Below are positions 10,855-20,000 of a stretch of 20,000 nucleotides of DNA, in pieces. Position 1 is the stretch's first letter; each line of letters begins with the position of its first letter. The position numbers and the translations under genes were made by a program. The stretch is taken from the IMG/VR virus record IMGVR_UViG_3300009152_002325. One strand, 5' to 3'. A model generated the notes under the pieces. It was not told where the DNA came from, searched no databases, and worked only from the letters and a program-made list of their open reading frames with translations. This stretch comes from an uncultured virus (IMG/VR IMGVR_UViG_3300009152_002325) (Duplodnaviria; Heunggongvirae; Uroviricota; Caudoviricetes).

Positions 10855-12618
10855 TTACAGAGTTTGGAACACTACCCTGTCTCTTGAATATGTTGACACG
10901 GGGCCTTGTGTCAATGACATTGACGATCCTTGCCCAACAGATAAAGGCTTTCCTATATAGAGGTCGTAATGCTCTTGGTGGCTAATTAGAGGATTTGTGT
11001 ACAGTGCAATATTTTGATATAAATTATCTTCGAGGACTCCAGTTCTTACTCCCAAAAGCTGCTTGCCATTAAACCAGATCTGACCACTTACTATTGAATT
11101 GGTTTTTATTAATATATAGTTAGGCTCATCTATATATAAGTATGAGGATATATTTGTTGCTGAGGATGCATCTTGGCCATTAATATAGATATTGCTTATA
11201 TTGGCTTTTGATATTGCTCCGCCTGCCGCCCAAGAAAGGTAGGTTTCTGTAGATCCAGTTTTGTTAAATATTAAGTGGCCACTAGATAATGATTTTGGAG
11301 TAAATATCATTTCAATATTTCTAACATCTTCTGCTGAGTTTATAAAAAATGCTGAAGATTTTGGCCTTATACCGTTGTCATAGTTTCTGGTTCTAATTGG
11401 ATATTTATTGTTGGACACATCAAAATCCCAAGTGCCCCCAATGGTTGGTTGCGAAGTAGATAGAGTACTTCCTCCATTATGAGAAAACATCTTCTTCTCA
11501 GAATGAAAATAAATCTTTAAAGAGTAAAGTTCTGGCAAGTAAATGTCTGAGTTTGTAGATGTAAATACAAATCTAAAGTATAGTATTTTGGTTGAAGAAA
11601 ATGCAGAACCTTGAGAAAAGCCTGGTATTGATGATCCATTTACACACGGTGTCCACGGTCCAGTTTCAGATGTTTCCGACACATATACTGAGACTCCTTT
11701 TGAAGCTACCCACTCTATCTTTGAAGATACATATTGATTTGTAATGTTTAAAACTATATCTTCTACAAATTCTCCGCTAGTAAATCCTGAATTTAAATAA
11801 ATGCTATTGTTATTTTGATTATACGAAATTGCTGCATTATCATATATGAGGTCTTTCCAAGGTACCTGAACTGGATAAACATATTTTGTTGTTATGTCTT
11901 GGTATCTTTCTGCGCCTCTAAATAACTCACCTAACTCTGGAACTGCAATCTGCTCATCATTATTTAAAAATAAATTATTGTAGTGTGATAGTATTGAGTT
12001 TCCAGAAAGAGCATATCTGTAAACTGCTGGGCAGTCTATTATAAAATGTTCCCCTGCTGGCGCTGGTCCACATGATAGTGTTATACTTGTATTTGTAAAA
12101 GATATGGATATAGGTTTGCTTTCAACTAAAACTCCATCTATATACAAACTCATTGAGCTTATAGAATACACTCCAACAATATGAAGCACTCTATTTGGAT
12201 TAGGAACAGAGTAATCAAGCCTTTCATTTTCTAATTTAAATACTACGTTGCCATTATCCCAATACAAACCAATTCCGTCTATGTCTGCAAATATTGGAGT
12301 TATAGATGTTAGCGTTTTTGGATGAAACCATGCTTCAAGCGTAAAGTCATTGTCATATGTTGATGGTGTTCCAAAACCTCCTGTGCCTGTGGTTCCAGAA
12401 AAATCTTTTGAAATAACAAACTGAATTGATTTAGTGCTATCTATTTTATTTGAATGTCGGCCACCAGAAACTATTGGCATGCCCGATATTTCAATTCCAC
12501 CTACATAAGATCCATTATTACCGCAACCAGAAATATCATAAGCAACAGAACCTGAAGTCTCATCAAGCTTCCATAGTCCAGTAGGTAAATCTTTTATTGT
12601 AGAAAGATAGTATGACAT
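10855..12618 (-). CDS. LamG / concanavalin A-like domain protein, probably virion-associated, 587 aa
   Basis: GLWKLDETSGSVAYDISGCGNNGSY, FTLEAWF, HIVGVYS...LYIDGVL and IDCPAVYRYALS...ILSHY follow the Laminin_G_3-like pattern; Ser/Thr/Asn-rich remainder. Confidence 0.8.
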   Translation of the reverse strand: MSYYLSTIKDLPTGLWKLDETSGSVAYDISGCGNNGSYVGGIEISGMPIVSGGRHSNKIDSTKSIQFVISKDFSGTTGTGGFGTPSTYDNDFTLEAWFHPKTLTSITPIFADIDGIGLYWDNGNVVFKLENERLDYSVPNPNRVLHIVGVYSISSMSLYIDGVLVESKPISISFTNTSITLSCGPAPAGEHFIIDCPAVYRYALSGNSILSHYNNLFLNNDEQIAVPELGELFRGAERYQDITTKYVYPVQVPWKDLIYDNAAISYNQNNNSIYLNSGFTSGEFVEDIVLNITNQYVSSKIEWVASKGVSVYVSETSETGPWTPCVNGSSIPGFSQGSAFSSTKILYFRFVFTSTNSDIYLPELYSLKIYFHSEKKMFSHNGGSTLSTSQPTIGGTWDFDVSNNKYPIRTRNYDNGIRPKSSAFFINSAEDVRNIEMIFTPKSLSSGHLIFNKTGSTETYLSWAAGGAISKANISNIYINGQDASSATNISSYLYIDEPNYILIKTNSIVSGQIWFNGKQLLGVRTGVLEDNLYQNIALYTNPLISHQEHYDLYIGKPLSVGQGSSMSLTQGPVSTYSRDRVVFQTL

Positions 12619-12785
12619 TATTTCCTAAAAAATATCTTTTTAAATTTCCTTAACATATTAGAGGCAGATTGTTTATTTTTTTCATAAGCAGCGTCTGTTC
12701 TTTCAGTAAAGGCATGGCTCTTAAAGTACGGGTTGAATTGAAGGTCTGTAAAGTGCCTTCTAGGGATTCTTTTATAAGGAGTCAT
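12618..12785 (-). CDS. Small basic hypothetical protein, 55 aa (below the ORF-track cutoff)
   Basis: MTPYKRIPRRHFTDLQFNPYFKSHAFTERTDAAYEKNKQSASNMLRKFKKIFFRK*. It fills the gap, its TAA overlaps the LamG ATG (TAATG), and TATAAT lies 7 nt upstream of its ATG. Confidence 0.65.
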   Translation of the reverse strand: MTPYKRIPRRHFTDLQFNPYFKSHAFTERTDAAYEKNKQSASNMLRKFKKIFFRK

Positions 12786-12792
12786 ATTTAAT

Positions 12793-12820
12793 ATTATACT
12801 ACAACAACTGCCAAAATCAA
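12793..12820 (-). promoter_or_regulatory. Sigma70-type promoter, probably leaderless
   Basis: Minus strand TTGATT-N16-TATAAT, then 7 nt to ATG 12785. Confidence 0.55.
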
Positions 12821-13281
12821 GAGTCTAGTTTTTTATCAATTCCCAGATTTGATAAGAATCTTTCTGGGTCAAATCTCCAATTATCTTTGGCAAATGAGGT
12901 CATTATTTCCATGCAGGTATCTTCGTATGCTTGAATTGAGATTAAAGGCTTTAATTTCAATAGGGTCTCTGTGACATCAATATAATTTGTTCTTAAAAAG
13001 CTAGGGTCTCCAGCCTGATTTCTCTTAAAGACCTTTTCATTAATTCTTCCATTGGGCTCATACAATCTAACTGTTAGATACTGCTTTGCAAAGCCCCAGT
13101 CTTCATACATATTATATGCTTCTGCTGCTTCAATTGCGTTAGGAAAGAAGATAATTGATCTTGCTGGTTCTTCCCCGTCTCTTGCAATTGTAAGCATATA
13201 GGCATCACCTTTTTTATTAGCTACCGCTTCAAGATACTCTTTAACTACATCGTGATGCTCTTGCTTTAGTTGTCCGCTCAT
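12817..13281 (-). CDS. Hypothetical protein, about 154 aa
   Basis: Likely start ATG 13281 (TAATG overlap with the methyltransferase stop); C-terminal FAKDNWRFDPERFL motif; function unknown. Confidence 0.7.
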   Translation of the reverse strand: MSGQLKQEHHDVVKEYLEAVANKKGDAYMLTIARDGEEPARSIIFFPNAIEAAEAYNMYEDWGFAKQYLTVRLYEPNGRINEKVFKRNQAGDPSFLRTNYIDVTETLLKLKPLISIQAYEDTCMEIMTSFAKDNWRFDPERFLSNLGIDKKLDS

Positions 13282-13868
13282 TACGTCCATCCCATGTTAA
13301 AATGTTCTCTATATTCTAGATAATCAATTGCATACGGGTCTACCCACCAGTCTTCATGCCATTGCCTTACAACTAGCTTATAGCCGAGAGAGGATAAGAT
13401 TTCTCGTTGGGCTTCTCTCATGCCTTTATTATTATATTCAATTTGGGCATCATGCTCAAAAGTTATTATAGAGTATCTGTATTTGCTTAATGGAACTGCT
13501 AATAGTCCATGCAGTGTTAGATAGGGATTTCCTACAGCATTTCCTTGTGGCGTATATCCAGCATCAATATCTACTTGCAGGTAATCAATTTGTTTTGGGA
13601 AATTATTTTCTTCAAAATATGAAAGGTAATTAAAATGCGTAGCATCTCCAAGGATACATGGGTTTTTTCTATTTGATACAAACTCTGCGTGTCTTTGCTT
13701 GTCTATCTCAAATGATACGCCGTTCCAATTATAGTCTGTTTCTAGATGATAGGTGTTGCTTCCTTGCTTTGAATCAAAAGCACCAAGCTCTACGTAAAAC
13801 CCATTTTCTTTATTTTTAAGTAACTGAGTAACAAATCTTTCTTGACCACTATTACCTTTATATTCCAT
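13281..13868 (-). CDS. FkbM-family (Methyltransf_21-like) SAM-dependent methyltransferase, 195 aa
   Basis: GQERFV...NGFYVELGAFD...SNTYHLE..YNWNGVSFEID, IDYLQVDID, IITFEHD and LGYKLV....EDWWV. Confidence 0.75.
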   Translation of the reverse strand: MEYKGNSGQERFVTQLLKNKENGFYVELGAFDSKQGSNTYHLETDYNWNGVSFEIDKQRHAEFVSNRKNPCILGDATHFNYLSYFEENNFPKQIDYLQVDIDAGYTPQGNAVGNPYLTLHGLLAVPLSKYRYSIITFEHDAQIEYNNKGMREAQREILSSLGYKLVVRQWHEDWWVDPYAIDYLEYREHFNMGWT

Positions 13869-14445
13869 TTATTTCTCCAAAAACATCTTTATTCAAAGAC
13901 ACAACTTCATTTAGTTTATGCTTTGCAAACATTGTAGATATGTATCTAGTTATATTATCTTGAACTGGAAGTGTTCCATGAAGTATCTCTCCAGCATGCA
14001 GAAGCAATGATCCTGCAATTGGTTTATGGGTTATCCCAAGATCTGGATACCTTAGCTCTCCGCCTTTATAGTCATCATTATAATAAATAACTACTCCATA
14101 AAAAACCTGTTCTCCATTAAGTCTGTGGCCATCATGATCATCTGTATGCTCACCAAGGGCATCGTTTAGCATATATCTTTGAAGATTTATTCCAGTTACT
14201 TCTAGATTTCCATTAAATAAATTACAGACTCTTTTATATATATCACTAAATATAGACTCTTTATTTACTAAACTGCTATTTAAAACTTTGTCTGTCCAAA
14301 AATCATACTGTATACCCTCTTCAGACCAATCTAAATTATCTTTAGATTCAGCAAACTGCATTACCTGATCAAGCTCGTCTTGTGTTATAAAATTTTGTAT
14401 TTCATAAACTTGATCAGATAACTTTGCAATTTTATAGTCTAACAT
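13858..14445 (-). CDS. 2OG-Fe(II) oxygenase, prolyl-4-hydroxylase-like (6th of 6)
   Basis: HTD...YYNDDYKGGELRY...HGTLPV....RY: HxD...H iron triad plus Arg for 2OG. Confidence 0.88.
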   Translation of the reverse strand: MLDYKIAKLSDQVYEIQNFITQDELDQVMQFAESKDNLDWSEEGIQYDFWTDKVLNSSLVNKESIFSDIYKRVCNLFNGNLEVTGINLQRYMLNDALGEHTDDHDGHRLNGEQVFYGVVIYYNDDYKGGELRYPDLGITHKPIAGSLLLHAGEILHGTLPVQDNITRYISTMFAKHKLNEVVSLNKDVFGEINGI

Positions 14446-14453
14446 CAACTACA

Positions 14454-15212
14454 TTATTCTTGGTTTTGTTCGTGATAGGCCTTTATGTATTCTTCTGATG
14501 GTCCACCTGGGCCACCTACAACATAACCATCAACAAATATAAATCCAGGAGTAATAAACTTTTCTCCTTCTTTCATAATATGAACTTGGTGCTTGTATGG
14601 ATCTGTAGATGGGAAAATTAATGCGCTTCCAGCTTTTGGCTTTGCAGTAAATGTGACCATGTCTTTAGTCCTTGGGTCTAGCGCATCATCTGGTGGTCTA
14701 AGATGACCATTCATTTCTAATCTTAGATCTTCTGGTCTAATAACAAACGATATTTCTCCGCCTTCATAGTCATCATTCCAGTAAATAATAATTGACCACT
14801 CTAGGCTATTATCTCCAGCTTGTCTATCAAAGTGAGCTCCCATTGCACAGCCTGGAATATACTTTTGTATACCAACAAACGGTGATACGTTTGGAACTCC
14901 CTTAAGGCCTCGATCAACAATAAAAGACTCTGATATATTCTTAATAGCATTTCTAATTGTTGATATAATTAGGTCGACATCTTTTCTTAAATCATCATCT
15001 AGGTTTTCTACTTCAGAAAGGTTAAAATCTTTTTTCTTTCCAAAGATGTTGCCGTCTCTGCTACTTGAATTCCAGTTTTTCCAGCTTGGAATAACCTTAT
15101 GAACTCTTTCATCAGAATCAAGCTTATTAACTAAATCAATAATTGCCTGGGGGTTCTCAATTACATCTGAATACATGTAAACATTTTCATGTAATTTTTC
15201 TTCTAGCTTCAT
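14454..15212 (-). CDS. 2OG-Fe(II) oxygenase, prolyl-4-hydroxylase-like (5th of 6)
   Basis: HFD...YWNDDYEGGEISF, an internal insertion, then PKAGSALIFPS...HQVHIMKEGEKF. Confidence 0.88.
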   Translation of the reverse strand: MKLEEKLHENVYMYSDVIENPQAIIDLVNKLDSDERVHKVIPSWKNWNSSSRDGNIFGKKKDFNLSEVENLDDDLRKDVDLIISTIRNAIKNISESFIVDRGLKGVPNVSPFVGIQKYIPGCAMGAHFDRQAGDNSLEWSIIIYWNDDYEGGEISFVIRPEDLRLEMNGHLRPPDDALDPRTKDMVTFTAKPKAGSALIFPSTDPYKHQVHIMKEGEKFITPGFIFVDGYVVGGPGGPSEEYIKAYHEQNQE

Positions 15213-15955
15213 TTGTCGTTCTCCTCTATTTTATATTTATTTCCATCTAGATCTATTCGGTATCCTTCTTTTAATGCATCTTGCCATTCTGACTTTATAA
15301 CTTCCTGCTCTTCTCTAATTTTTTTCATTTCTGCATCCCAAGCGTCTATTGTTTCTTGTGGATATGATTCTGGTGACCGATCATCCCAAAATGAACCTAG
15401 GGTGTATCTTATTCCAGAAGTTATCATTGTAACCTCATGAGTATTATCAAAGCCTCCTGCAAAAGCTGCTAGCGTTCCAGTCTCTGGGACAAGTGTATGA
15501 TTTTGCTTGTTAAATATTAACTGACCGCCCTCAAACTCATCATTTAAATACAAGAAGGCTGCGTATCTACTTCTTTCAAATGGGCCAGTGTTTCCCTGCA
15601 AATCTGTATTGTCAGAATGCTCTTTAGCATAAGCTCCTGGCTCCCACTTTTGAGCATGAAATCCAATTTTATGAATATCAAATGAAGAATTTCCATGCAC
15701 CTCAGCTACAGCATCAATAATTCTATTTTGAAGAACTGAAAAAAAATCTGATGGCAAGCCGAACTGCTCTAGTTCTTCATCTCCGTCTTGGGGCAAAACT
15801 GATGAGTATGATTCATAGAAAGTGATAGGTGTCCAAGATAGCTTTTCATTTGCAACCTGCGCTTCTAAAACTTTTATAATTGCGGAAGATTCTTCTTTTG
15901 TTAAAAAGTTTTTAAACACTAAAATATCTGGCGTTAATCTTTCTGAAATACTCAT
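15209..15955 (-). CDS. 2OG-Fe(II) oxygenase, prolyl-4-hydroxylase-like (4th of 6)
   Basis: HSD...YLNDEFEGGQLIF...HEVTMITSGIRYT; charged helical C-terminal tail. Confidence 0.88.
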   Translation of the reverse strand: MSISERLTPDILVFKNFLTKEESSAIIKVLEAQVANEKLSWTPITFYESYSSVLPQDGDEELEQFGLPSDFFSVLQNRIIDAVAEVHGNSSFDIHKIGFHAQKWEPGAYAKEHSDNTDLQGNTGPFERSRYAAFLYLNDEFEGGQLIFNKQNHTLVPETGTLAAFAGGFDNTHEVTMITSGIRYTLGSFWDDRSPESYPQETIDAWDAEMKKIREEQEVIKSEWQDALKEGYRIDLDGNKYKIEENDK

Positions 15956-16683
15956 TTATTTATATCTCCATCTAGTAGTGTTCTATGATATTTTTTATTT
16001 GGATCTGGTTGGTTTTCTCCAGTATGCTCTAAAATTTCCCAGAAAAATGGACAAGTGTATCTTATAGCACCTTTAATTTCAGTTACTCCGTGGATATAAT
16101 TCATATCGCCTGGGAAAAAATAAGCTGCTCCCTTTTTAGGTTTAAATTGAACTCCCTGTAGTGGAAAATATAATTCCCCACCTTCGTAATCATCATTCAA
16201 ATAAAATAAGCTTGATAGATCGTAGTATGGAAAATCATTTGGCAATCCAATATCTGGAAGTTCATGAAGCTCTTTATCTGCATGTGGTTTCTGGAACTGT
16301 CCAGGAAGCCAACGAACAATTGTTGTTCCAGTTGGAGTTACTTTAACTTTATAAAAATCTTCAACAATTGGTTTTAGTCTTTCAAACAAACCCTGGAGAA
16401 CGGGCCTAATTGCTGGATCATTTTTGTCTAAAGATGGGCTTGTGCAGACTCTATCTTTCCAATAATTATGATCATATACGGTTGTACCATTTTCATTTAC
16501 ATGGCTCTCCGTTACATCCCAAATGGTAATCTTTCTAGCAGCTGCTTCAAGAAACTCTATTTCTTCTTGTGTCATAAAGTTTTCTAGCTCAACTATCATG
16601 TCCTTGCCAGATCCAAAAAATCCAGATGGGGTTAAAGATGGAGTCTTGTATACGACTGAAGCGTCTTGATTTGTTTGATTCAT
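15952..16683 (-). CDS. 2OG-Fe(II) oxygenase, prolyl-4-hydroxylase-like (3rd of 6)
   Basis: HAD...YLNDDYEGGELYF...PKKGAAYFFPG...HGVTEIKGAIRYT. Confidence 0.9.
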   Translation of the reverse strand: MNQTNQDASVVYKTPSLTPSGFFGSGKDMIVELENFMTQEEIEFLEAAARKITIWDVTESHVNENGTTVYDHNYWKDRVCTSPSLDKNDPAIRPVLQGLFERLKPIVEDFYKVKVTPTGTTIVRWLPGQFQKPHADKELHELPDIGLPNDFPYYDLSSLFYLNDDYEGGELYFPLQGVQFKPKKGAAYFFPGDMNYIHGVTEIKGAIRYTCPFFWEILEHTGENQPDPNKKYHRTLLDGDINK

Positions 16684-16689
16684 ATTCTT

Positions 16690-16698
16690 ATTATATCA
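16690..16698 (-). promoter_or_regulatory. Extended -10 promoter (probably leaderless) inside the oxygenase cluster
   Basis: Minus strand TGATATAAT, whose TGA is the upstream stop codon; 6 nt to ATG 16683 and no RBS. Confidence 0.5.
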
Positions 16699-17412
16699 TT
16701 TCTCATTGCTTGAAGTAAGGTCAGTAATTTTTAACTTTAAAGACTTAACCTCATGGCTTCCAAGGACGGTGCCATCGTAATCTACTGCATCTCTATAGAA
16801 ATTTGTGAATCCACCTGATTGAGTAATTTTATCCCAGGCCTTAAGTCTCGCTTGTCTACGTATATGCTCTGACTCAGTAAATACTTTATCTTTTACTTCG
16901 AGCTCTACATTTTGATACTCTGACAAAGATATAGGGATAAATGTTGCCACTGGCATGCCCGCTGGAATCTTTATAACAGTATTCGGTCTTGTTATTTTCC
17001 ATGCAATTGGTATGCCCTCTTTTAAAACAGATGTTGAAATAATTGTTGTAAATGGAGTAGCTCCATCTACAAAAAAATTAGGAGGAACTATTTGAAGCAT
17101 TGAAACATTTGGATCCGTCTCAAAGAAAAACCCAGAGTAAAAACTAATTGTGCCATTTGCTCTTTGGCCAGTAGCAACTTGTGCTGGATCCGATATTATC
17201 TTTACATGATCTGGAGTCGTATCTGAAATACCATCCCAACTGAACTCAATATCATCTAAAAATGAGATTGACCAACCAATTGTATTTGCCAAAGAAACTG
17301 GAAAACATTTGTATGCATGGGCATTTAGAGTTTCATCCATCCAGTCTCTTTTAACTTTAGTTTGTTCTATTTTAGACCTAGTCTGTTTATTTTTATAGGC
17401 TGTTATTTTCAT
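16696..17412 (-). CDS. DUF6065-like protein, about 238 aa
   Basis: Probable start MKITAYK (17412). KRDWMDET..AHAYKCFPVSLANTIGW, PPNFFVDG and WKITRPN..I.IPAGMPVATFIP match my recollection of DUF6065. Confidence 0.7.
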   Translation of the reverse strand: MKITAYKNKQTRSKIEQTKVKRDWMDETLNAHAYKCFPVSLANTIGWSISFLDDIEFSWDGISDTTPDHVKIISDPAQVATGQRANGTISFYSGFFFETDPNVSMLQIVPPNFFVDGATPFTTIISTSVLKEGIPIAWKITRPNTVIKIPAGMPVATFIPISLSEYQNVELEVKDKVFTESEHIRRQARLKAWDKITQSGGFTNFYRDAVDYDGTVLGSHEVKSLKLKITDLTSSNEK

Positions 17413-18103
17413 TGATTTCGTTATCCCATTTTGGATCATACATCTCTTGAGTATGAAATTTTTTACTATAGTCAAGCATAGTTACTATAGAATATTTTGT
17501 TCCTTTGGTTACAGCTTTTGCTTGATGAGGGTACATAAAGTTAGATGGGAAAATATAAAGGTCTCCAGCTCTTGGCTTAATATCTAGGCCCTGAAGTCTA
17601 AAATACAATCCTCCATCATCATAGTCATCGTTAACATAACCAACCAAGGACACAACGCAATTATAAGAATATCCGTGGTCTTGGTGCTCCATAAAATGTT
17701 GGCTTTCTCCATATTTAATAAAATTAAAAGCTTCCCAATATTTAAGCTCCATAATATTATGCGCTTTGCAGTAATCTACAACTACTGGATATTGAGCATC
17801 ATAAACATCTTGCCATAGAGATTTTAACTTTTCAGCATCTTCACTTTTATCAAGAGCTATATCGCTTTTTTTAAATTTGAAATCTACGCAATCTCTATAG
17901 TCTGGCATTAACTGTTGATACCCAACATAAGCTGGCTGATAAGAATATCTTTTTTCTTTACTGCCAACTGGACCAACTGAGCCTTCAAGTCTATTTATAA
18001 TGTCAAATTCTTTTTTTAATACGTCTCTATATACAAATATTCCAGGAGCCAACTCTTCTTTGCTACTCCATGTTGGAGATGTGCTTTTCTTTTCTGTTGT
18101 CAT
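17393..18103 (-). CDS. 2OG-Fe(II) oxygenase, prolyl-4-hydroxylase-like (2nd of 6)
   Basis: EAFNFIKY...HQDHG...YVNDDYDDGGLYF...PRAGDLYIFPSNFMYPH......GTKYSIV. Confidence 0.9.
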   Translation of the reverse strand: MTTEKKSTSPTWSSKEELAPGIFVYRDVLKKEFDIINRLEGSVGPVGSKEKRYSYQPAYVGYQQLMPDYRDCVDFKFKKSDIALDKSEDAEKLKSLWQDVYDAQYPVVVDYCKAHNIMELKYWEAFNFIKYGESQHFMEHQDHGYSYNCVVSLVGYVNDDYDDGGLYFRLQGLDIKPRAGDLYIFPSNFMYPHQAKAVTKGTKYSIVTMLDYSKKFHTQEMYDPKWDNEINENNSL

Positions 18104-18873
18104 TTATATTCTCTCTTTTTCCAAATTTTTGACTTATACACTCCACCGTCGGGCTGACGATAAAACTTTGCATTATCCATTAGTTTTTTTTGCATTTCTT
18201 TTACATCAAGATACTCAACTTCGTGGCTCCAGTCTTCTCTTTTAAATGGAAGTACTTGTAGAAATGGTGTGCCTTTTGGGACAGTTCCTTCCCAATCTTT
18301 TGCAATAAAAAATGGAAATGTACCAAGTAAGTGGACCTCATCATTATCAACAATACCGCTGGTATTCAAGAAAGGCAAATCAAATCTATTCATTGGTGTC
18401 ATAAATAATGCACTGTATCCTTTTGGAACTTGAATTCCCCATTCTGGGTACCAAGCAAAATGATCTTCGTGATAACCAACTGGAGATGGAAATTGCTGCA
18501 TAGGAGGTCTTTCTGTTACAAAGCCTACATGCTTTTTATCTTTTATCTCTACAGATATTTTTCCCTTTTTATTTTTTGAAAAAAATAAATCGCATGGCGT
18601 GCTTAATACATATCCAGTCATAAATGCATCTAGTATTGCTGGGCAAGCCTTCCATGTTGGAATTTTACCATAGTCATCTTTTGTGCCTTCCCTTGGGATA
18701 GGGCAAACCTCTTTAGTGGCTTTATAGTATTCTCCATTTGGCATTTTTGCAAATCTGTCCGCCTCTTTGTACCATTCAGGAATACTGCCCTGAGTTGGCT
18801 TTGGTAAAGAAGGGCTGAATTTATCTAGCCATGGTCTAAAAGATTGAAATAGTATTTTAATATTTTTGTCCAG
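18100..18873 (-). CDS. DUF6065-related protein; true start uncertain (track start 18744, frame open further upstream)
   Basis: TWKACPAILDAFMTGY, WGIQVPKGYSALFMTPMNRFDLPF..SGIVDND and PKGTPFLQVLPFKREDW parallel the motifs of 16696..17412. The upstream in-frame stretch KILFQSFRPWL...IPEWYKEADRF looks coding. Confidence 0.6.
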   Translation of the reverse strand: MDKNIKILFQSFRPWLDKFSPSLPKPTQGSIPEWYKEADRFAKMPNGEYYKATKEVCPIPREGTKDDYGKIPTWKACPAILDAFMTGYVLSTPCDLFFSKNKKGKISVEIKDKKHVGFVTERPPMQQFPSPVGYHEDHFAWYPEWGIQVPKGYSALFMTPMNRFDLPFLNTSGIVDNDEVHLLGTFPFFIAKDWEGTVPKGTPFLQVLPFKREDWSHEVEYLDVKEMQKKLMDNAKFYRQPDGGVYKSKIWKKREYK

Positions 18874-19561
18874 TCTCTTCTTTATGATAGAGATCGTTAT
18901 AATCCATCATAATAACTACAGAATATTTTGTTCCAGATGATATATTTAAAGAAGCATGCTCGTAAACAAAGTTAGATGGAAACAGTATTATATCTCCTGC
19001 TTTTGGTTTTAAAATCATATCATGTCTTGGAAATTCAATTTCTCCGCCCACGTAATCATCATTTAAATATACAACTGCTGATACCGTACATGTGTAATAT
19101 GGACCATGGTCAGCATGTATTTTAAAAAACTCTCCTGGTAAATATTTTACAAAGTTAAATGCTTCTTTATAATTAATATTAAAATTCCATTCTGATTCAT
19201 AATGTCTTAATGCTTTATTTAATCCAATATCAACAATATCATAGCATTCTCTTAAAACATCACTGTCAGAAATATATTTACCAATTTGATCTTTTTTAAA
19301 TTTTAAATCATAACAATTTCTGGCATGAGTAGTTCTATCTTTTCCATTAACTCTTGCGCCATTCCATTGAATTCCAACTTTTTCTAAAGATATTTCTTCT
19401 TCAAGCATGGCAATTAGATTTTGGCAGTCTTCTTTACTTATTGCATTTCTATAAAGATTTATCCCGTATTCAAGGTTTTCAACAACAATGTTTTCATCAA
19501 TTTTTTTTGATTCAACTCTTGAAGTTGTTTTTTCAATTCTTGGTAGGTCATACCATTCCAT
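18857..19561 (-). CDS. 2OG-Fe(II) oxygenase, prolyl-4-hydroxylase-like (1st of 6)
   Basis: EAFNFVKY...HADHG...YLNDDYVGGEIEF...PKAGDIILFPSNFVYEH......GTKYSVV; clear paralog of 17393..18103. Confidence 0.9.
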   Translation of the reverse strand: MEWYDLPRIEKTTSRVESKKIDENIVVENLEYGINLYRNAISKEDCQNLIAMLEEEISLEKVGIQWNGARVNGKDRTTHARNCYDLKFKKDQIGKYISDSDVLRECYDIVDIGLNKALRHYESEWNFNINYKEAFNFVKYLPGEFFKIHADHGPYYTCTVSAVVYLNDDYVGGEIEFPRHDMILKPKAGDIILFPSNFVYEHASLNISSGTKYSVVIMMDYNDLYHKEETGQKY

Positions 19562-19575
19562 AGTATCTCATTTCT

Positions 19576-19584
19576 ACTATAACA
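19576..19584 (-). promoter_or_regulatory. Possible extended -10 promoter for the oxygenase cluster
   Basis: Minus strand TGTTATAGT 14 nt upstream of ATG 19561; TTGAAT lies upstream at a short 15-nt spacing. Confidence 0.35.
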
Positions 19585-19623
19585 TCTTATCATACTATTC
19601 AAGAAAAGAAAAGTATATTTTAT

Positions 19624-20000
19624 TTAGTATCCTCTAAAGTATGGGAAGTACGGTCCGCCGCCAAAACTTGGGAAGAACGGTGGGAAGAACGGTCCAAATG
19701 ATGGGAAGTATGGTGGGAAGAACGGTCCAAATAATGGGAAGAACGGGAAGCTTGGTCCCTTAAAGAACGGGAAGTATGGTGGGAAGAACGGCGGGAAGAA
19801 TGGTGGGAAGAATGGGAAGAACGGTGGGAAGAACGGCGGGAAGAATGGTGGGAAGAATGGTGGGAAGAATGGGAAGAAGGGTGGGAAGAACGGTGGGAAG
19901 AACGGTGGGAAGAACGGTGGGAAGAATGGGAAGAACGGTGGGAAGAACGGTGGGAAGAACGGGAAGAACGGTGGGAAGAATGGTGGGAAGAATGGGAAGA
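19624..20000 (-). CDS. C-terminal part of a Pro/Phe repeat protein (start outside the window)
   Basis: Absent from the ORF track. 124 complete sense codons, then TAA at 19624-19626: ...FPFFPPFFPPFFPFFPPFFPPFFPFFPPFFPPFFPPFFPPFFPFFPPFFPPFFPPFFPPFFPFFPPFFPPFFPPYFPFFKGPSFPFFPLFGPFFPPYFPSFGPFFPPFFPSFGGGPYFPYFRGY*. Same strand as all other genes; variation in the core is at Pro third positions (CCA/CCG/CCC). Confidence 0.8.
   Translation of the reverse strand, partial: FPFFPPFFPPFFPFFPPFFPPFFPFFPPFFPPFFPPFFPPFFPFFPPFFPPFFPPFFPPFFPFFPPFFPPFFPPYFPFFKGPSFPFFPLFGPFFPPYFPSFGPFFPPFFPSFGGGPYFPYFRGY
19641..20000. repeat. Coding tandem repeat of 12-nt (YGGYGGGAAGAA) and 9-nt (YGGGAAGAA) units
   Basis: Seen directly. 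All unit lengths are multiples of 3. Pure Pro/Phe from 19777 to the window edge, degenerate towards 19641. Confidence 0.95.

Follow-up and report, generated by a model that had tools for sequence, protein, structure and literature searches.

The phage record IMG/VR IMGVR_UViG_3300009152_002325 (116,500 bases, 37.5% G+C, estimated to be 97% complete) contains a gene for a fibre-type protein of 532 amino acids (aa), the C-terminal 149 residues of which consist almost entirely of Pro and Phe, followed on the same strand by six PF13640 2-oxoglutarate (2OG)-Fe(II) oxygenase genes starting 62 nt downstream. The 20,000-nt stretch analysed here, referred to as the window, corresponds to G000:C1:32140-52139 of this record. 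It is close to certain that the tract is a real, translated module of a phage fibre. The reading favoured here, with a rough probability of 0.55, is that it forms an extended, sticky fibre tail hydroxylated by the neighbouring enzymes; the same probability is attached to its core element, the tail as candidate substrate of these enzymes, as suggested by gene order and co-occurrence.

A proline-phenylalanine tail ends a fibre-type protein

The tail gene is truncated by the window, beyond the end of which lie both the first tail residue (aa 384) and the ATG (window-equivalent 21222), and the complete open reading frame (ORF) is found in the full record on the minus strand (G000:C1 53361 -> 51763). 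The first-pass annotation, made from the letters of the window, had allowed for a missing start or in-frame stops upstream; the ORF begins with an ATG preceded by AGGGG at ~10 nt, 27 nt past the stop of the preceding gene, and is free of stops over its 532 aa. Minus-strand translation of 19624-19998 reproduced the 74 consecutive Pro/Phe-only codons described earlier at 19777-19998, and the blocks of 2, 2, 4, 4 and 3 PPxF units split by single PFF units, as well as the decay to PxF-G units and the RGY* end, were read in the same way. In the full protein the tail covers aa 384-532, with 131/149 residues being P or F (F 70, P 61, G 7, Y 5, S 3, and one each of K, L and R) and Phe alone accounting for 47%, while the P/F-only run extends over 99 residues (aa 384-482). 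Chance is excluded as the origin of the tract, since Pro and Phe together make up only 8.4% of the residues in this genome's proteins, a composition at which a 99-residue P/F run has a probability of ~1e-107. The same C-terminal end (PSFGGGPYFPYFRGY) was found in the relative L018, in which the last 15 residues are identical.

The N-terminal 383 residues preceding the tail comprise four fibronectin type III (FN3)-like domains, and the protein (P0001) scored 39.5 bits against the fn3 profile (PF00041, cut-off 25). The AlphaFold2 model of aa 289-532 displayed a confident five-stranded beta-sandwich at aa 289-383 (pLDDT ~90) and a tail with neither helix nor strand (pLDDT 40-67); a three-copy trimer prediction of the same residues scored 0.00 in a run without controls and is used neither way. 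Searched with phmmer against 1.84 billion representatives, the N-terminal 382 aa gave 9,861 matches at E<=0.001, dominated by long FN3 arrays and uninformative on the tail. The tail alone retrieved 6,653 candidates in a word-based search, only 48 of which had E<=0.001 because of the composition correction, and the sole functional name among these 48 was 'Fibronectin type III [uncultured Caudovirales phage]'. The ESM Atlas search with the tail returned no usable match by features, the structure rows all having TM <0.3.

Nothing follows the tail in this protein, which ends at RGY with no Peptidase_S74 or other domain behind it. The N-terminus (MASKRRGIKSSAQ) has neither a signal peptide nor a lipobox-like start, and its first 20 residues (MASKRRGIKSSAQDNFLEP) recur in relatives with such tails in the common pattern MASK..G.KS.A.DNFLEP, which suggests a common attachment peptide. 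The tail gene is the last in a string of tail-fibre-like genes, those upstream of it matching tail-fibre families, one with Mtd_N (the Mtd N-terminal domain), and the portal, protease and major capsid genes lie downstream of the oxygenase array. The host is likely an actinobacterium, because the capsid protein shares 62% identity with its counterparts in Streptomyces phages and a WhiB gene is present. The latter lies outside the window (G000:C1:98135-98308, minus strand, E 3.3e-13), and the WhiB family matched only Corynebacterium among 14 control genomes.

Two familiar structures were rejected for the tail. A collagen triple helix is impossible, as Gly does not occupy every third residue: the 149 residues contain only 7 Gly, which show no periodicity and are absent from the 99-residue core. 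A transmembrane helix anchor fails on the core, where never more than two residues separate the prolines, and on the model, which shows no helix; the earlier judgement that the tract is too Pro-rich for a normal transmembrane helix thus stands.

The tract is selected as protein

Unit changes in homologous loci, to which the first-pass annotation had looked for a decision, proved to be multiples of 3: in DNA alignments with two related loci of other assemblies, this held for 5/5 indels (L018) and 9/9 indels (L094), and in four public runs 7/7 listed indels within the repeat were of 3 letters. The (PPFF)4 DNA pattern was found in at least 120 stretches of viral contigs, 80 loci of which were fetched and analysed, and the PPFF frame lies inside an open ORF in all 80.

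Codon choice is strongly skewed. In the tail, TTC makes up 91% of Phe codons and CCG 41% of Pro codons, vs 21% and 4%, respectively, in the remaining genome. Over the 80 loci, TTC accounts for 83% of Phe codons within repeats vs 41% elsewhere in the same ORFs and exceeds TTT inside the repeats in 70/80 loci, with TTTTTT being rare (24/940 Phe-Phe pairs). The TTC preference would mean either that slippery homopolymer runs are avoided or that the fully paired Phe codon is preferred, while the translation demand of long Pro-Pro and Phe-Phe tracts may be an alternative cause of the TTC and CCG enrichment. Phage tRNAs fail to explain the preference, since none for Pro or Phe was found in the genome.

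Assembly artefact and non-coding simple sequence are both hardly credible as explanations of the repeat. Short-read contigs of four public runs do break within it, and all six frames are open across it. However, only the PFF frame continues into a long ORF, independent assemblies share the gene, the frame and the C-terminal end with in-frame length differences, the PPFF frame is open in every locus fetched, and the codon choice is non-random. In addition, a second gene of this genome requires the PPFF frame to connect two domains. It encodes a protein of 917 aa (G000:C1:10562-13315, minus strand; L011:10565-13315) with (PPFF)8 at aa 788-819 as an in-frame linker ahead of the last FN3-like domain, and the frame is therefore needed between folded parts. 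The tail is thus a protein-selected module and not an artefact.

The first-pass annotation had also credited the repeat with higher-order organisation, which did not survive comparison. The full gene reads PFF, PFF, 5xPPFF, PFF, 2, PFF, 2, PFF, 4, PFF, 4, PFF, 3, and Tandem Repeats Finder detected periods of 12, 33, 45 and 57 nt; PFF plus four PPFF make up the longest unit, of 57 nt, which is present in 3.8 copies at 91% match. Close relatives show other block series (L018 0,0,2,1,4,1,4,4,1,1; L094 1,2,1,4,4,1,2), so that the pattern, which matches 33-, 45- and 57-nt tandem duplications, is a trace of recent local duplication rather than a conserved design. Among the 80 loci, single-P units are mixed with PPxF in 24 and pure PPxF occurs in 56, with some F replaced by Y, W or H; the repeat spans a median of 59 residues (range 16-152, n=65 ORFs with complete 5' end).

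The phage comes from fresh water. Among public DNA runs, 14 from 8 studies contain the stretch, their labels being fresh water, lake water or plain metagenome; the RNA run gives no sign of transcription. In lake metagenomes, word depth over the repeat rises up to hundreds of times that of the flanks (~8,900 vs 14 in run X8), the high-depth stretch being L013:1400-2700, equivalent to window 19540-20000 and beyond. This depth is inflated because many co-occurring phages share the repeat words.

Six prolyl 4-hydroxylase-type oxygenases adjoin the tail

All six oxygenases score above the PF13640 cut-off, and each of the six retains the H-x-D...H iron triad together with a basic R/K ligand for 2OG. 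They are old, specialised paralogs, as their mutual identity is 22-38%, yet the corresponding copies are kept in the same order in relatives, at 26-78% identity. For oxygenase 1, the copy adjoining the tail and the only one modelled (pLDDT 84.7), the best PDB sequence matches are collagen lysyl hydroxylase LH3 and the Bacillus anthracis prolyl 4-hydroxylase (P4H) (E ~5e-4). The best fold match of its model is the PBCV-1 collagen prolyl hydroxylase 5c5t (E 1.7e-10), next to which come PHD2 and then algal, Pseudomonas and Bacillus P4Hs (top matches by PDB id: 5c5t, 5l9b, 3gze, 2jig, 4iw3 and 5iat). By family, by ligands and, for the first enzyme only, by fold, the six enzymes are of P4H type, and prolyl hydroxylation is their predicted activity.

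In a scan of 12500-20000, the minus-strand interval separating the tail gene from oxygenase 1 showed no terminator-like site, a weak and uninformative result, and promoter and terminator counts over this range were not above those of shuffles. Two further PF13640 genes lie off the array among early or replication-region genes (G000:C1:66789-67040, plus strand; 88672-88950, minus strand).

Tails and oxygenase arrays occur together

Oxygenase ORFs were searched for within 3 kb of the 80 loci with a local hidden Markov model built from the six enzymes, and were found at 62/80. Same-strand oxygenase ORFs lie downstream in 55 loci and upstream in 1, and opposite-strand ones occur in 19; where at least 2 kb of room was available on both sides (n=38), the corresponding numbers are 26, 1 and 12. 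An oxygenase ORF stands beside 60/66 terminal or capped tails vs 2/14 linker-type proteins, and DUF6065 or phrog_7084 genes, which are interleaved in the array of the window, occur within 3 kb in 37/80 loci. A separate check at the level of records, for which 50 of the 80 loci were submitted and 49 viral records searched, found PF13640 in 43/49 PPFF-bearing records.

The pairing was followed along one phage backbone with 17 capsid relatives, hand-picked from the 80 closest and having contigs of at least ~16 kb upstream of the capsid gene. Oxygenase arrays of 5-10 copies are present in 16/17, and a Pro/aromatic tail gene in all 16 that carry an array. The strict (PPFF)3 occurs in 5 of them, and variant repeats (PPGFFS, PPSFFG, SPPFFPPGFF, PFF/PYF) in 11, ending the syntenic FN3 gene <=1.2 kb upstream of the array. 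The seventeenth relative (L238, record G063; portal 75% identical) has neither array nor Pro/aromatic tail, two FN3 proteins ending in long Gly-rich domains instead. The repeats of L227-L237 have period 6 (PPGFFS, PPSFFG, APPGFF) or are mixed (SPPFFPPGFF), many with a Hint-like cap.

A match to this capsid protein was obtained in only 9/49 PPFF records, with identities from 97% down to 40%, and several PPFF contigs of 64-105 kb have none. Judged by these matches, the PPFF records are not one lineage and appear to span more than one. The oxygenase family itself occurs in 362/50,697 cultured-phage records, cyanophage names standing on 329/362 (Synechococcus 266, Cyanophage 49, Prochlorococcus 14), and Streptomyces phage BillNye has neither a PPFF-type repeat nor an oxygenase match. 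From these distributions, the tails seem to need the enzymes, while the enzymes do not need the tails.

Proposed mechanism and alternatives

A chain with Pro at least at every fourth position forms no helices or sheets of any length and tends to polyproline-II, which rises 0.31 nm per residue. The tail would accordingly be a non-globular, proline-stiffened chain projecting from the FN3 stalk, and 99-149 residues would span ~31-46 nm if fully in polyproline-II. The neighbouring enzymes would hydroxylate its prolines, and perhaps other positions, in the cytoplasm during synthesis, with the several paralogs each serving different positions or sequence contexts. Hydroxylation would maintain solubility and stiffness in a chain of 47% Phe. 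Once on the virion, the tail may act as a sticky aromatic filament or spacer contacting the host envelope or, alternatively, may zip to the tails of neighbouring copies. In other fibre proteins, the same module in a shorter form would provide a stiff connection between domains.

A more ambitious version is offered tentatively, as possible though doubtful. According to it, freshwater actinobacteria phages would possess a new fibre type, in which a Pro-Phe polymer is converted by 6-11 sub-specialised prolyl-hydroxylase-like enzymes into a hydroxylated, stiff, self-zipping aromatic filament, a natural counterpart of synthetic Hyp-Phe-Phe (Hyp, hydroxyproline) materials and the first substrate assigned to phage oxygenase arrays. 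Variant tails such as PPGFFS, together with the self-cleaving Hint and S74 caps, would belong to the same maturation system.

Several points weigh against a hydroxylated fibre tail. The link between enzymes and substrate is suggested by gene order and by co-occurrence among partly related phages, the virion location of the tail protein by its gene neighbours, and the extended conformation by composition and a low-confidence model. Six of the 49 PPFF-bearing records gave no PF13640 match, all six being fragments of 4-31% completeness, and linker-type PPFF proteins lie far from arrays, ~35 kb away in this genome. Neither PPFFx2 nor PPxFFxPPxFF was found in the cyanophage (10 PF13640 matches) and the Methylophilales phage (3 matches) searched, and the oxygenases have other substrates elsewhere, as the family occurs without a PPFF-type repeat. 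X-Pro-Gly, the classical target of collagen P4H, is absent from this tail; Pro-Pro-Gly, the classical collagen hydroxylase target, or similar sequences (PPGFFS, PPSFFG) are present in the syntenic tails of 11 relatives. Finally, the exact unit number in this record is unconfirmed, since none of the contigs of the four public runs spans the repeat.

Some of these observations can be read in favour of an unmodified low-complexity spacer or sticky end, placed beside the oxygenases only through a shared variable island between the tail-fibre and head modules, with the enzymes acting on nucleic acid, a host protein or a small molecule. PF13640 arrays do occur in phages lacking the repeat, the linker-type PPFF protein of this genome is remote from its array, and PHROGs places these proteins in the class 'auxiliary metabolic gene and host takeover', families named DNA endonuclease being matched less strongly. 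This explanation is nevertheless considered unlikely, as a shared island does not account for the directional order of the genes (55/80 downstream on the same strand vs 1 upstream), for the joint presence of tail and array in 16/17 capsid relatives and the loss of both in the other, or for the recurrence of the pairing on backbones whose capsid is 40% identical or not detectably related; moreover, the nearest solved folds are those of protein prolyl hydroxylases and not of nucleic-acid oxygenases. The high Phe content of the tail and its position behind a PASTA-type domain in some relatives (L095, P0015, L069), which would place its work at the envelope, also fit an aromatic Pro-rich chain that partitions into a hydrophobic surface layer, be it the host membrane or another, at adsorption or assembly. 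This possibility is improbable, given that Pro at least at every fourth position rules out a membrane-spanning helix, that the module also links soluble FN3-like domains, and that the protein has no signal peptide or lipobox-like start.

The options listed in the first-pass annotation, namely a filament or adhesive, a membrane anchor and a multi-core peptide precursor, are affected unequally by this evidence. A filament or adhesive remains plausible for the end of an FN3 fibre-type protein encoded in a tail-fibre string, and is retained in the hydroxylated fibre tail proposed above. A multi-core precursor of the ribosomally synthesised and post-translationally modified peptide (RiPP) type, from which small Pro-Phe peptides would be cut and tailored by the neighbouring enzymes, could draw on the repetitive units, the adjoining tailoring-type enzymes and the presence of Pro-Pro-Phe-Phe in cyclolinopeptide A, stated in the first-pass annotation and borne out by the literature (PMC9182219). 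It was rejected as very improbable: the tract of the 532-aa protein is fused to 383 folded residues of FN3-like domains within a fibre gene string, protease, cyclase and transporter families were not found among the genes of that string, no conserved cleavage sites lie between the units, the order of which is free, and elsewhere the module acts as an in-frame linker.

The PPFF module in other proteins

The PPFF module is in effect phage-only. Across prokaryotes, represented by one genome for each of 185,579 species, the (PPFF)4 pattern was found at 10 stretches, all in contigs of metagenome-assembled genomes (MAGs), six being of a phage small-protein type and four being short junk frames. The six look like phage contigs binned into bacterial genomes. 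These loci (L218, L220-L223, L226) lie on short contigs, oxygenase ORFs adjoin four of them, and their taxon labels are discordant (Verrucomicrobiales, Gammaproteobacteria, Acidibacter, Cyclobacteriaceae).

Simple rules assigned the architectures of the 80 loci. The commonest is an end of the form ...PPxFK within 12 residues of the repeat (29/80), followed by other short ends (19/80), linkers with further domains behind them (14/80), short Cys-rich ends (7/80), a Hint-like domain after the repeat (6/80), long Cys-rich ends (3/80) and, by regular expression, an SDxRxK motif after the repeat (2/80; L042 and L064). A Pfam scan of 14 tail proteins of relatives found Peptidase_S74 right after ...PPAFK in 1/14 (L042, E 3.6e-11; L042:1085-1762, minus strand, 226 aa). 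The Peptidase_S74 chaperone cuts at its own start, and the stop-encoded ...PPxFK* end coincides with the expected self-cleavage point. L064 and L087 have the SDYRLK motif and a short acidic remnant only. Hint or intein Pfam matches were sub-threshold in five of the six Hint-like loci (five scanned).

PASTA, a cell-wall-binding domain of Gram-positive bacteria, is represented by PASTA-type domains preceding the tail in some relatives (L095, E 1.3e-9; P0015; L069), which fits a Gram-positive host and an envelope role. Small tail proteins of ~125-340 aa with an N-terminal PASTA-type domain comprise L095, L069, P0015, L218, L220 and L223. The 917-aa protein of this genome has no Pfam match, and its gene closes the tail module and is separated from the oxygenase array by ~35 kb. 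Its C-terminus (...TGGGY) and that of the tail protein (...RGY) both end in Gly-Tyr.

Features of the window

The tail gene and the same-strand genes that follow it are collected in Table 1. With its listed TTG start, the DUF6065 gene overlaps the preceding oxygenase gene by 83 nt, and its true start is probably further in.

Table 1. Tail gene and downstream same-strand genes, in window coordinates
Feature	Coordinates	Strand	Remarks
Pure Pro/Phe part of tail, as held in window	19777..20000	-	aa 408-482 of 532-aa protein
Degenerate tail end: PPYF, PFFKG, PSF, PFF, PLFG, PFF, PPYF, PSFG, PFF, PPFF, PSFGGG, PYF, PYFRGY	19627..19776	-	translation
Stop codon (TAA) of FN3-PFF gene	19624..19626	-	translation
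Oxygenase 1, 234 aa	18857..19561	-	PF13640; H-x-D...H + K; nearest solved folds protein prolyl 4-hydroxylases
phrog_7084 protein, 214 aa, interleaved in array	18100..18744	-	E 6.1e-32; no Pfam match
Oxygenase 2, 236 aa	17393..18103	-	PF13640
DUF6065 protein, 259 aa as listed	16696..17475	-	PF19541, E 1e-33
Oxygenase 3, 243 aa	15952..16683	-	PF13640
Oxygenase 4, 248 aa	15209..15955	-	PF13640
Oxygenase 5, 252 aa	14454..15212	-	PF13640
Oxygenase 6, 196 aa	13858..14448	-	PF13640, slightly above cut-off (30 bits vs 27)
Two ORFs, 195 and 157 aa, closing same-strand string before head module	12817..13868	-	no family found

Significance and relation to known systems

2OG-Fe(II) oxygenases are widespread in aquatic phages and, to our knowledge, none has an assigned substrate. 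With a candidate substrate encoded directly upstream, the substrate question of phage oxygenases becomes testable. If the proposal is true, a phage virion protein would be tailored post-translationally by a multi-enzyme battery, and the tail would represent a novel motif for protein materials, one for which a synthetic analogue is known. The phages concerned are an abundant group of lake phages, the fibre genes of which are likely mis-assembled or under-annotated, because low-complexity masking misses such tails and the repeats break short-read assemblies. The literature search retrieved no paper containing PPFFPPFF, titles and abstracts contained no report tying PPFF to phages, and among the matches listed for phage prolyl hydroxylases none dealt, in title or abstract, with such tails.

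Several known systems share single features with the tail and its array. Collagen-like (Gly-X-Y) phage fibres and bacterial surface proteins also contain fibrous repeats rich in proline, and the P4H of Bacillus anthracis (PDB 3itq, 5hv0) is among the best sequence and fold matches of the tail-adjoining oxygenase. Peptidase_S74, which also follows trimeric fibre stalks, stands behind the tail as a trimer-chaperone in the relative L042, as in trimeric fibres. Unlike Gly-X-Y collagen, the tail is devoid of periodic Gly, and its units have 3 or 4 residues in free order. Extensins, the hydroxyproline-rich glycoproteins of plants and algae, are likewise extended proline-rich chains with aromatics, theirs being hydroxylated, and the Chlamydomonas P4H (PDB 2jig, 3gze) is among the top fold matches of oxygenase 1. 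In contrast to extensins, the tail lacks the Ser-Pro(n) motif, no glycosyltransferase was seen in the gene string, and the protein is cytoplasmic and bacterial-viral rather than secretory.

Pro-Pro-Phe-Phe also forms part of antamanide. It is reported from cyclic peptides such as cyclolinopeptide A (PMC9182219, PMC9266943), and a further report describes Pro-Phe-Phe tripeptides as forming helical-like sheets via a dry zipper of Phe rings, with the Hyp version differing in hydrogen bonding (PMC8113556). The likeness to cyclolinopeptide A and antamanide is one of letters only, as these contain a single copy in a ring of 9-10 residues and come from plants and fungi. The tail shares the three-residue unit PFF with the tripeptides; however, these are free in crystals or fibrils, whereas the units of the tail are joined in one chain, mixed with PPFF, and known from sequence. 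Marine cyanophages also carry several PF13640 genes per genome, with 10 matches in Synechococcus phage S-MbCM7, but their oxygenases have <30% identity to those described here, the cyanophage tested has no PPFF-type repeat, and in the stretch shown the oxygenase genes are not preceded by a fibre gene.

Among known systems, the closest is the PBCV-1 hydroxylase vCPH (PDB 5c5t) together with the Pro-rich repeats of that virus. As in the phage described here, a virus encodes a P4H-type 2OG oxygenase along with proline-rich repeat proteins, and vCPH is the top fold match of the tail-adjoining oxygenase. Eriksson et al. in 1999 reportedly found that vCPH hydroxylates peptides from the Pro-rich repeats of the virus itself. 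PBCV-1, a eukaryotic virus, has a single enzyme, whereas the phage has six diverged paralogs in a row, accompanied by DUF6065 and phrog_7084 genes; also unlike PBCV-1, its Pro-Phe repeat is without charged residues, is fused to FN3 fibre domains and is encoded directly upstream of the enzymes. By this comparison, the tail and its array would constitute a system of the viral prolyl-hydroxylase type, with a Pro-rich repeat as the candidate substrate.

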